In this document: positions 36,816 through 38,426 of the stretch, piece after piece
Layout: each line of letters begins with the position of its first letter
Numbering within the stretch: the stretch's first letter is position 1
Origin: a virus
Lineage: Duplodnaviria; Heunggongvirae; Uroviricota; Caudoviricetes
IMG/VR virus record: IMGVR_UViG_2563366992_000001
Location: 1 to 41,968 of that record
Direction: 5' to 3' (one strand)
DNA length: 41,968 nucleotides
The notes under the pieces: model-generated
What the model was told of the DNA's origin: nothing
Seen by the model: only the letters and a program-made list of their open reading frames with translations
Databases searched by the model: none
Program-made: the position numbers and the translations under genes

Positions 36816-37370
36816 ATGCTTATTGGCTATGTACGTGTGTCAACAAATGACCAGAACACAGATCTACAACGTAATGCGCTGAACTGTGCAGGATGCGAGC
36901 TGATTTTTGAAGACAAGATAAGCGGTACAAAGTCCGAAAGGCCTGGACTGAAAAAACTGCTCAGGACATTATCGGCAGGTGACACTCTGGTTGTCTGGAA
37001 GCTGGATCGGCTGGGGCGTAGTATGCGGCATCTGGTCATTCTGGTTGAGGAGTTGCGCGAACGAGGCATCAACTTTCGTAGTCTGACGGATTCAATTGAT
37101 ACTAGTACCCCAATGGGGCGCTTTTTCTTTCATGTGATGGGTGCCCTGGCTGAAATGGAACGAGAACTGATTGTTGAACGAACAAAAGCTGGACTGGAAG
37201 CTGCTCGCGCACAGGGACGAATTGGTGGACGTCGTCCCAAACTTACACCAGAACAATGGGCGCAGGCCGGTCGATTAATTGCATCAGGCGTTCCTCGCCA
37301 GAAGGTGGCGATCATCTATGATGTTGGTATATCGACACTGTATAAGAAGTTTCCGGTCGGAGATAAATGA
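36816..37370 (+). CDS. pin: serine DNA invertase (Pin/Gin/Hin family)
   Basis: N-terminal GYVRVSTNDQ catalytic-Ser motif and C-terminal HTH; adjacent to the invertible segment. Confidence 0.9.
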   Translation: MLIGYVRVSTNDQNTDLQRNALNCAGCELIFEDKISGTKSERPGLKKLLRTLSAGDTLVVWKLDRLGRSMRHLVILVEELRERGINFRSLTDSIDTSTPMGRFFFHVMGALAEMERELIVERTKAGLEAARAQGRIGGRRPKLTPEQWAQAGRLIASGVPRQKVAIIYDVGISTLYKKFPVGDK

Positions 37371-37405
37371 AACCGTAGCACGTCGTATGCAAGATCGTGC
37401 TGCGG
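37353..37405. repeat. direct repeat copy A (pin 3' end plus hairpin)
   Basis: CCGGTCGGAGATAAATGAAACCGTAGCACGTCGTATGCAAGATCGTGCTGCGG; contains an 8-bp stem hairpin 37375..37403. Confidence 0.55.
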
Positions 37406-37427
37406 TTTATGCTTATCACTTAAAGAC

Positions 37428-38201
37428 TCAAAAATTAGGTGAGTAACGGACCGGGGACATAGCTCCTTTTTTTCTTAATTCATCTGGTATTTTTTTTCCA
37501 AGATAAAGATTTGCTATTTCAGGTGGGGCTTCTCGACCTTCAAAACCATAGCGAGAACTTTGTGTTGCCTCAAAGTCAGGATCCTCGTCCCAGTATTTCA
37601 TCGTAGGGAAATTTTCACGTGTTGATTTGAGCCATTTATCAGCAATGAAAACCCCTCGAACGATTCCCCTTACAGTCGCAAGAATGACTTCTGCTTGGCT
37701 GGCGCGAGAGACATTAATGCGCCAGCTAAATCGAACCGCATCATAAAGCTCTGAATCCTTTGCACTTCTGTTAACGGAAATCATTAATGCTTTATGATGA
37801 AATGTTATGGTTTCGGGGTGATATGTTGCTATCAACTCTTTGACATGCGCGGCGCCGAATTCATTGCTGCCAGCACCATTCATGATATTCGTTAACCCAG
37901 GGTAGGCATCAATAAGTGCTGCTTCAACTTCGTACGCCGTCTTTTCATCAGTCATTCCGTGTCGATGGATGACGTGGATAACTTCAAGTCCCGCTAATCT
38001 TATTTCTCTGATTTGCTTTAGCTTGTTGCTCAGTAACTCGTCATCATCAGCCGCTGCCACTTCACCGCGCATATGGGCAAATACGCGGTTACCTTTGCCT
38101 TTCCCTACATAGAAGGTGCTTCCGTCCCTAGGATCAATCAATCGGTATACATACCAGCCAAGGTGTTCAATTACTCCAGAAGGAAACTCAGTAATATCCA
38201 T
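37428..38201 (-). CDS. GIY-YIG domain protein with uncharacterised C-terminal domain
   Basis: N-terminal [24 protein letters not shown] parallels the UvrC/GIY-YIG motif; weak RBS, start uncertain (38201 ATG or 38252 TTG). Confidence 0.55.
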
Positions 38202-38377
38202 TTTGCAATATCTGTGAATTATTTGTGAGACGTATATTAATGAACATTGCAAGGGCTCACAACTAGTAGTGTTGAGAAAGCCATCGGGAAAATGAGGCTA
38301 ACCCTTTGAATTTACATAGCGCAAAAAGATACCTTTCCTCATAATGTGAGCTAATTTTATGTTTCGTTTGATGATCG

Positions 38378-38426
38378 GGTCGGTCTCGAAACCCGTAGCC
38401 ACGTCATATGCAAGAACGTGCTACGA
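38378..38426. repeat. direct repeat copy B (degenerate copy of the pin 3' end plus hairpin)
   Basis: CGGGTCGGTCTCGAAACCCGTAGCCACGTCATATGCAAGAACGTGCTACGA aligns with copy A over about 50 bp with a few substitutions and indels. Confidence 0.55.

Follow-up and report, generated by a model that had tools for sequence, protein, structure and literature searches.

A hairpin family at the border of a variable defence-cargo slot behind pin in e14-like prophages

How does a gene for a GIY-YIG nuclease come to lie between two copies of a short hairpin, directly behind the DNA invertase gene pin of an Escherichia coli prophage? The question is raised by a caudoviricete record in IMG/VR (IMGVR_UViG_2563366992_000001), of which positions 1 to 41,968 were analysed; this whole stretch of 41,968 nucleotides (nt) is referred to below as the window. 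A preliminary description had read the arrangement as the footprint of a cassette inserted or exchanged by recombination at the end of pin, with the last pin codons and a hairpin duplicated around a defence or homing effector. Judging from sequence comparison, the repeats are instead two members of a widespread hairpin family that borders cargo in many coliphages including lambda, and not a duplication made by insertion. The site after pin is a variable cargo slot, a further example of the known type of prophage defence hotspot, and the enclosed gene, by its similarity, is that of CMoRE/PD-T4-3, an already characterised single-gene defence system, with nothing new in the gene itself.

Two hairpins of one family around a CMoRE gene

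The repeat consists of a 26-nt core (CACGTCGTATGCAAGATCGTGCTGCG) at 37379-37404 that recurs at 38400-38425 with three mismatches (23 of 26 positions identical), a match absent from 100 dinucleotide-preserving shuffles. With gaps allowed, the similarity covers about 42 nt (37370-37408 versus 38388-38428; 33/42 identical, 79%). What is repeated is the hairpin, and the last codons of pin are not part of it: precise alignment of the 60 nt upstream of either copy gives a local score of 7 (TCCGGTCGG / TCGGGTCGG), a chance level reached by 1323 of 2000 shuffles (66%), and the sequence ahead of the second copy is a remnant of an attachment (att) site in the tRNA gene serU. The duplication of the pin 3′ end thus falls away.

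The first copy, hairpin A, takes in the final base of the pin stop codon and leaves 19 nt to the stop codon of CMoRE; it is 100% identical to the hairpin that follows pin in E. coli O157:H7. It folds with −23.6 kcal/mol on the plus strand (z = −5.0) and −17.4 kcal/mol on the minus strand. The second copy, hairpin B, is a degraded member of the family, with an extra C bulge, lost basal pairs and a weakened fold (−13.9 kcal/mol, z = −1.65). The two copies are not an insertion-made pair, because hairpin A is nearer to the hairpin of phage HK97 (36/41) than to hairpin B, because the best match of hairpin B is the resident hairpin of a prophage with an empty site (L002, 39/42), and because the family occurs in nearly every E. 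coli genome. A covariance model of the hairpin (R1) finds just two copies in the whole window and 60 copies in 80 related loci, 59 of the 60 on the pin strand. Across 26 variants of the family 92.6% of cells are paired and 8 of the 12 pairs show changes on both sides; none of 500 shuffles was as good, and slid controls were far lower. The 12-bp stem covaries, to the point that HK633, locus L088 and a chromosomal copy have quite different stem sequences, and the 13-nt loop TCGTATGCAAGAA (37389-37401 and 38410-38422 in the window) is near-invariant. To go by this pattern of substitution, the hairpin is clearly under selection.

The gene between the hairpins is convergent with pin, and its placement between the two copies on the opposite strand was described correctly. 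The PADLOC profile for PD-T4-3 (PDLC04031) matches the protein over residues 1-256 of 256 (E = 5.6e-140), and the best structural match is PDB 9U75 (E = 5.3e-172, ~98% identity over 257 amino acids (aa)), followed by 9U7U (E = 5.5e-150, residues 1-257). According to PMC12923530, CMoRE is a type IV modification-dependent endonuclease that degrades DNA containing 5-hydroxymethylcytosine (5hmC) or glucosyl-5hmC (ghmC) and is built from an N-terminal GIYxY-YIG nuclease with an acidic inhibitory loop and a C-terminal modification sensor; the same paper defines the motif residues Y17, Y19 and Y31 and that loop, and demonstrates cleavage of 5hmC/ghmC DNA and protection against T-even phages for the O157:H7 and APEC O1 proteins. 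The window translation contains the motif (G15-W-Y17-V-Y19 ... F-Y31-V-G) as well as an acidic AAADDDE loop. Given the agreement of PADLOC, PDB and motif, the C-terminal domain, which the preliminary description had called unknown and proposed for a domain search, is the modification sensor, and the gene is a known defence gene. Compared with the published system (Vassallo et al. 2022, PMC9519451; Nat Commun 2026, PMC12923530; PDB 9U75, 9U7U), the likeness extends to full length, GIYxY-YIG residues, acidic loop and single-gene organisation, and there is no difference of substance, the crystallised protein being that of O157:H7. CMoRE also restricts Tevenvirinae in its native host (bioRxiv 2024.12.20.629700), and in a lysogen the window protein would cut 5-hydroxymethyl- and glucosyl-hydroxymethyl-cytosine DNA and restrict T-even phages, as others have found for the 98%-identical protein. 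Its placement beside pin in e14-like prophages is not described in the accessible parts of PMC9519451 and PMC12923530.

Of the two functions first suggested, defence thus holds and homing does not. The match to a PHROG homing-endonuclease family is marginal (E = 0.0019, versus 1.5e-142 for the protein's own family), the C-terminal domain is a modification sensor, and the cassette ends in a family hairpin and an att remnant. The 5′ flank of CMoRE travels together with the gene and probably holds a promoter of its own, such as TTGTGA-17-TAATAT some 40 nt before the ATG, as picked out by eye; a consensus promoter scan upstream of CMoRE reported none.

A variable slot between pin and a conserved module

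Comparison with related prophages bears out the proposed cargo hotspot at the end of pin: the inserted genes vary, where the same repeats with invariable contents would have pointed to a conserved structural feature. The empty slot (pin-hairpin-module) occurs in at least 116 E. coli genomes (e.g. L002, L013), and a 982-nt CMoRE cassette, conserved at 95-100%, occurs in 821, about 554 of them with the window arrangement and about 267 more with the cassette in other contexts, including serU. The cassette is present or absent between conserved flanks in relatives, as a moron or accessory cassette should be. Fifty-three IMG/VR loci have a close pin and usable downstream sequence. Fifteen of these are empty, with the hairpin and module directly after pin; ten have CMoRE followed by the 3′ half of serU; six have CMoRE and an EcoRII restriction-modification pair, then hairpin and module; mcrA without a hairpin is found in five. 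The window type, a 215-aa gene, and the order CMoRE-hairpin-(CapH/CapP-like helix-turn-helix protein, M78 peptidase and Bro-N protein)-hairpin-module account for three loci each, and eight show other or incomplete arrangements. In L028 and L078 two cassettes in a row are delimited by three hairpins, O157:H7 carries the CMoRE cassette with just one hairpin, and an icd-integrated relative has McrBC after the module. In the e14 prophage of K-12, pinE is followed by mcrA, and a check for the hairpin around mcrA found none.

Restriction systems recur in the slot (McrA, a McrBC-like pair, CMoRE and EcoRII), three of the four directed at modified cytosine. In O103:H2 and several IMG/VR contigs (L010 4382-5029, L014 1285-1932) the slot is filled by the 215-aa gene (WP_001288820.1), which is on the minus strand; neither this gene nor a 497-aa gene of L002 has a Pfam or PADLOC match, and the former may be regarded as a candidate for a defence or exclusion function. 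One IMG/VR contig (L035 1572-2406) carries a second CMoRE cassette with its hairpin A, inverted, about 3 kb upstream of pin, and pin itself is there followed by the empty hairpin-module.

The right border of the slot is a module of ~195 nt that starts with hairpin B and runs to ~38585. It is matched in 5387 of 5426 complete E. coli genomes, at a median of three places per genome, and is found in lambda, HK97, HK633, Stx phages, Qin and e14-like prophages with a conservation of 80-95%. Its contexts differ. In strain QDFD216, where the site is empty, it comes straight after pin, and in AR_0151 it comes after a tail-fibre assembly gene; K-12 has it at the right end of Qin, lambda between ea47 and ea31, and HK97 between a 17-nt relic of pin and the sib site, and one chromosomal copy is placed between ykgJ and ecpE. 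In an alignment of 38 distinct copies all share the hairpin as their left end, and the right ends are nested, falling at about +61, +84, +116 and +195 nt. The module is non-coding: a minus-strand open reading frame (MQKIRKI...) has lost its ATG in about half of the copies and is broken by 1-nt and 4-nt indels; a 9-codon plus-strand mini-frame starting in the loop, seen by eye in the alignments, is not conserved either, and the partial 'capsid protein' pseudogene that PGAP sets on the module is spurious. A structured RNA over the whole module was likewise rejected: RNAalifold gave a weak consensus on both strands (190 nt at −14 to −18 kcal/mol, the covariance term being positive), and outside the hairpin there is no conserved RNA structure. 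In a permissive search the 180-nt Rfam model of CssrB (RF02799) scored 32.4 and 19.6 bits on the two hairpin copies, below its gathering score of 76, and only the terminal hairpin aligned; the copies are not assigned to CssrB, and a literature search on CssrB returned unrelated papers only. HK97 is without an invertase and keeps the last 17 nt of a pin gene (GGGAGATAAATGA) before its hairpin; between tfa and the hairpin (L007 2871-2997) it has what appears by eye to be the reverse-complemented 3′ end of a second tfa. These remnants would be the relic of a deleted invertible segment.

Origin of the arrangement and competing explanations

The joints at the hairpin base give an indication of how the cassette and the module came together. 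Hairpin B is directly preceded on its left by GGGTCGGTCTCGAAA, which is what remains of the anticodon stem-loop of serU, the gene for tRNA-Ser(CGA), and the corresponding remnant in L011, L027 and L028 (GGACCGGTCTCGAAAACCG) is identical to serU. Every lineage has this remnant where the cassette ends on the right; the serU 3′ half is complete in L005 and L011, and in O157:H7 and L011 the remnant runs on through it to CCA, which makes these att junctions. The window switches from serU to hairpin B within GAAA(A)CCG, a string common to serU and the 5′ base of the hairpin. A different att core ends at the same base elsewhere. In L027 (10697-10725), L028 (10232-10257) and L070 (3742-3770) the final 23-28 nt of ssrA, reverse-complemented, abut the 5′ base of the hairpin, fused at GAA(A/C)CCGC, in the loci that bear EcoRII and CapH/CapP and in L070, before the terminal hairpin.

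The most convincing explanation of the whole, and one that we consider probably correct, is that the CMoRE cassette was joined to a resident hairpin and module and that cargo has since been exchanged by homologous recombination through the conserved flanks. CMoRE would have been the last gene before attP in a sister phage integrating at serU, and the block of hairpin A, CMoRE and serU att remnant would have been linked up with the hairpin and module resident in another phage. The joint would be a single illegitimate event, or one by an integrase at a secondary site, at the 8-9-nt microhomology GAAA(A)CCG, as the junction sequences suggest. There would be two hairpins because the cassette from the sister phage brought hairpin A alongside hairpin B, the resident copy of the same element at the head of the module. 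Hairpin A, flanked by AAA and TTT and placed between the convergent pin and CMoRE, would end or stabilise both transcripts, and is probably a bidirectional terminator or 3′-end hairpin; in L004 and Qin the hairpin copies have 5-6 T on the minus strand. Later, phages would have traded cargo through relaxed homologous recombination, with pin and the tail-fibre genes serving as homology on the left of the slot and the module anchoring it on the right; the many alternative contents of the slot would be the outcome. Recombination of this kind between lambdoid phages and prophages (lambda, K-12) across diverged flanks of ~80% identity has been shown experimentally (PMC3945230).

It is important to point out that several observations weigh against this account. 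A consensus terminator scan of 36700-38750 called no terminator, hairpin A included; hairpin A has only three T after its stem and a 13-nt loop, and its terminator function is one that we infer. A simple terminator would not normally have a loop so close to invariant, which hints at a different or further role. Cargo can occupy this position without the hairpin, as mcrA does after pinE in K-12 e14. The second att remnant, from ssrA, at the same base may point to a mechanism more specific than random illegitimate recombination: the serU and ssrA joints could be two chance microhomology joints, the result of hairpin-stimulated illegitimate recombination, or the work of an integrase at a secondary site. 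Finally, we infer the direction of the serU-to-hairpin joint, i.e. the ancestral arrangement, from the junction sequences only.

An origin of the repeats as the target duplication or footprint of a mobile, homing-endonuclease-like GIY-YIG cassette inserted at the end of pin is highly improbable. Although the site is also found empty and the gene is enclosed exactly by the two copies, these are just 79% identical and each is nearer to the hairpins of other phages, a serU att remnant and not pin precedes hairpin B, and O157:H7 has the same cassette with one hairpin only. The protein moreover has a sensor domain and is a modification-dependent restriction enzyme rather than a homing one, and there are neither terminal inverted repeats nor a transposase; a target-site duplication of the transposon type was accordingly set aside, the repeats matching at 33/42 and no transposase reading frame lying between them. 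More is to be said for an RNA-level role, in which hairpin and module would mainly regulate late-gene, pin or cargo expression, as a target of RNase III or ProQ/Hfq or as the 3′ end of a small RNA like Shigella CssrB, and would be repeated once per transcription unit. The invariant loop on a covarying stem, the position of the HK97 module next to the sib retroregulator and the below-threshold matches of both copies to the 3′-terminal hairpin of CssrB fit such a role; the lack of conserved structure past the hairpin and the decay of copy B in the window do not. As a principal explanation this is possible, if rather improbable; it is compatible with the cassette-joining account and not exclusive of it.

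A third possibility gives the hairpin a dedicated role in recombination, in the manner of an integron attC or a secondary attachment site: a site-specific recombinase (a phage integrase or Pin) would act at its 5′ base and capture cargo there. Integrases that target tRNA genes exchange strands at the boundary of loop and stem (the sublocation rule), and the joint lies exactly at such a boundary. Two unrelated att cores, the serU anticodon loop CTCGAAA and the ssrA T-loop AGTTGAA in reverse orientation, are fused at the same place, the stem covaries around a nearly invariant loop, the orientation is strict, and the GenBank record of HK633 labels the module attP. Yet, Pin aside, no recombinase is consistently linked to the hairpin, and the gix-like site of Pin (36736-36761) is unrelated to it. 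The right-hand junctions are scattered (directly after the hairpin and at about +9, +44, +61, +84, +116 and +195), the element lies far from the known attP core in lambda and HK97, and each att-hairpin joint could be a single ancestral microhomology event, all of which makes a dedicated site unlikely. Similarly doubtful is the related proposal that the hairpin, with its covarying stem, constant loop and fixed orientation, is an undescribed cis-element that marks and perhaps creates the slot border in lambda-like and e14-like coliphages, as a preferred joint for integrase-mediated or hairpin-stimulated recombination; this would account for serU and ssrA att cores and successive defence cassettes all meeting at the hairpin base.

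The prophage and its known counterparts

The queried stretch 36780-38720 is 100% identical to E. coli strain FY10, in which the element is a complete e14-like prophage with ymfQ and ymfR homologues, an HK97-type head, a Mu-type tail and an invertible tail-fibre segment with pinE. The prophage adjoins thrW, and FY10 has a 48-nt thrW repeat (L001 28291-28338) ~6.5 kb to the right of the module; a search of the window itself for a thrW att repeat of at least 12 nt found none, the repeat sitting beyond the window in FY10. The window represents a thrW-integrated E. coli prophage of the e14-like kind with a Mu-type tail. Because the thrW repeat lies to the right of the hairpins, everything past the pin stop codon is the accessory end of the element, and the stretch from pin, the last gene of the late region and the final conserved gene ahead of the slot, to the right attachment site would be the counterpart of the lambda b region. 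The content of guanine and cytosine (GC) falls in steps: it is ~0.50 in pin, 0.42-0.46 in the cassette and 0.33-0.38 further on. Features of the window and related loci are collected in the table.

Table. Features of the window, with module copies and restriction-system loci of related elements (given with their locus)
Feature	Positions	Strand	Basis or remark
tRNA-Thr (thrW)	1369..1444		Rfam search at gathering thresholds, sole match
pin, pinE-type serine DNA invertase	36816..37370	+	Pfam Resolvase (1.1e-51) and HTH_7; pinE annotation in 100%-identical FY10
Hairpin A	37370..37408		stem AAACCGTAGCACG / CGTGCTGCGGTTT, loop TCGTATGCAAGAT; covariance model R1 57.7 bits (hairpin A was among the R1 training sequences)
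CMoRE/PD-T4-3 open reading frame, 257 aa	37428..38201	-	PADLOC, PDB, Pfam LEM-3_GIY-YIG
CMoRE 5′ flank	38202..38373	-	part of the 982-nt cassette
serU (tRNA-Ser CGA) attachment-core remnant GGGTCGGTCTCGAAAC	38374..38395	+	alignment with K-12 serU and the O157:H7, L011, L027 and L028 junctions
Hairpin B	38387..38432		first element of the conserved module; R1 59.7 bits
Conserved non-coding module: hairpin + GGCTGGTGAACTTCCGATAGTGCGAGTATTGAATGATTTCC ... CTGCTATGTGCCA	38389..38585		shared by lambdoid and e14-like prophages
Low-GC cargo right of the module: MBL-fold protein, 216-aa tyrosine recombinase, 331-aa hypothetical protein	38707..41968	+	FY10 comparison
Module copy, L006 (lambda)	5003..5196		
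Module copy, L007 (HK97)	2998..3096		
Module copy, L003 (Qin)	3001..3104		
Module copy, L001	40958..41060		
Restriction-system locus in slot, L009 (K-12 e14)	3847..4680		
Restriction-system locus in slot, L012	4600..7673		
Restriction-system locus in slot, L027	7751..10475		

Immediately ahead of pin is the gix-like crossover site (TTCTCCCAAACCAACGTTTATGAAAA). A search of the window with up to three mismatches gave no inverted partner for it, so the invertible tail-fibre segment has a left site that is more diverged, or the search overlooked it. The cargo to the right of the module probably belongs to the same accessory region, since it is inside the thrW att repeat in FY10. Its 439-aa MBL-fold protein has weak similarity to LmuA, Avs1a and 6A-MBL, and its 331-aa protein has no family match; in FY10 an IS5-like element interrupts the MBL gene, and a DUF4145 gene comes next, ahead of the thrW repeat. 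This gene group may be an uncharacterised defence set.

The closest parallel is the b region of lambda, where the leftward accessory gene ea47 comes right after the tail-fibre genes (tfa) and lies between two paralogous hairpins (29/41 identical), the second of which heads the same ~195-nt module; the differences are the cargo, the absence of T or A runs around the lambda hairpins and the lack of pin. The K-12 e14 prophage shares family and slot with the window, and its cargo is also a type IV modification-dependent endonuclease, whereas its mcrA lies on the pin strand and has neither hairpin nor module. The concept of the moron, an accessory transcription unit of lambdoid phages, reportedly goes back to Juhala, Hendrix and colleagues in 2000. 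The cassette resembles a moron in that an independently oriented gene, with its own 5′ flank, a 3′ hairpin and a GC content below that of pin, is set between conserved phage segments. Integron cassettes are alike by analogy only: single-gene cassettes follow one another between imperfect hairpin repeats, with two cassettes and three hairpins at most (L028). Here there is no IntI integrase (none among the Pfam results), attI or Pc, the neighbours are pin and CMoRE, the hairpins lack the R/L boxes of attC, to which they are unrelated, and junction positions vary.

The slot shares with the defence hotspots of P2 and P4 prophages (Rousset et al. 2022; Vassallo et al. 2022) a fixed site in a prophage family, conserved borders and alternative defence systems, here CMoRE, EcoRII, McrA, McrBC and the CapH/CapP-like cassette. 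It differs in that it belongs to another phage family, lies after pin or tfa and before att, and has a non-coding module, not a gene, as its right anchor. What emerges is that e14-like and lambdoid prophages have, after pin or tfa, a slot for defence cargo in which type IV and type II restriction systems recur and which can be located by a short hairpin and a module of ~195 nt. The conserved loop of this hairpin, present even in lambda, is a small question of interest in itself, and the slot could be mined for further defence genes, as the P2 and P4 hotspots were.

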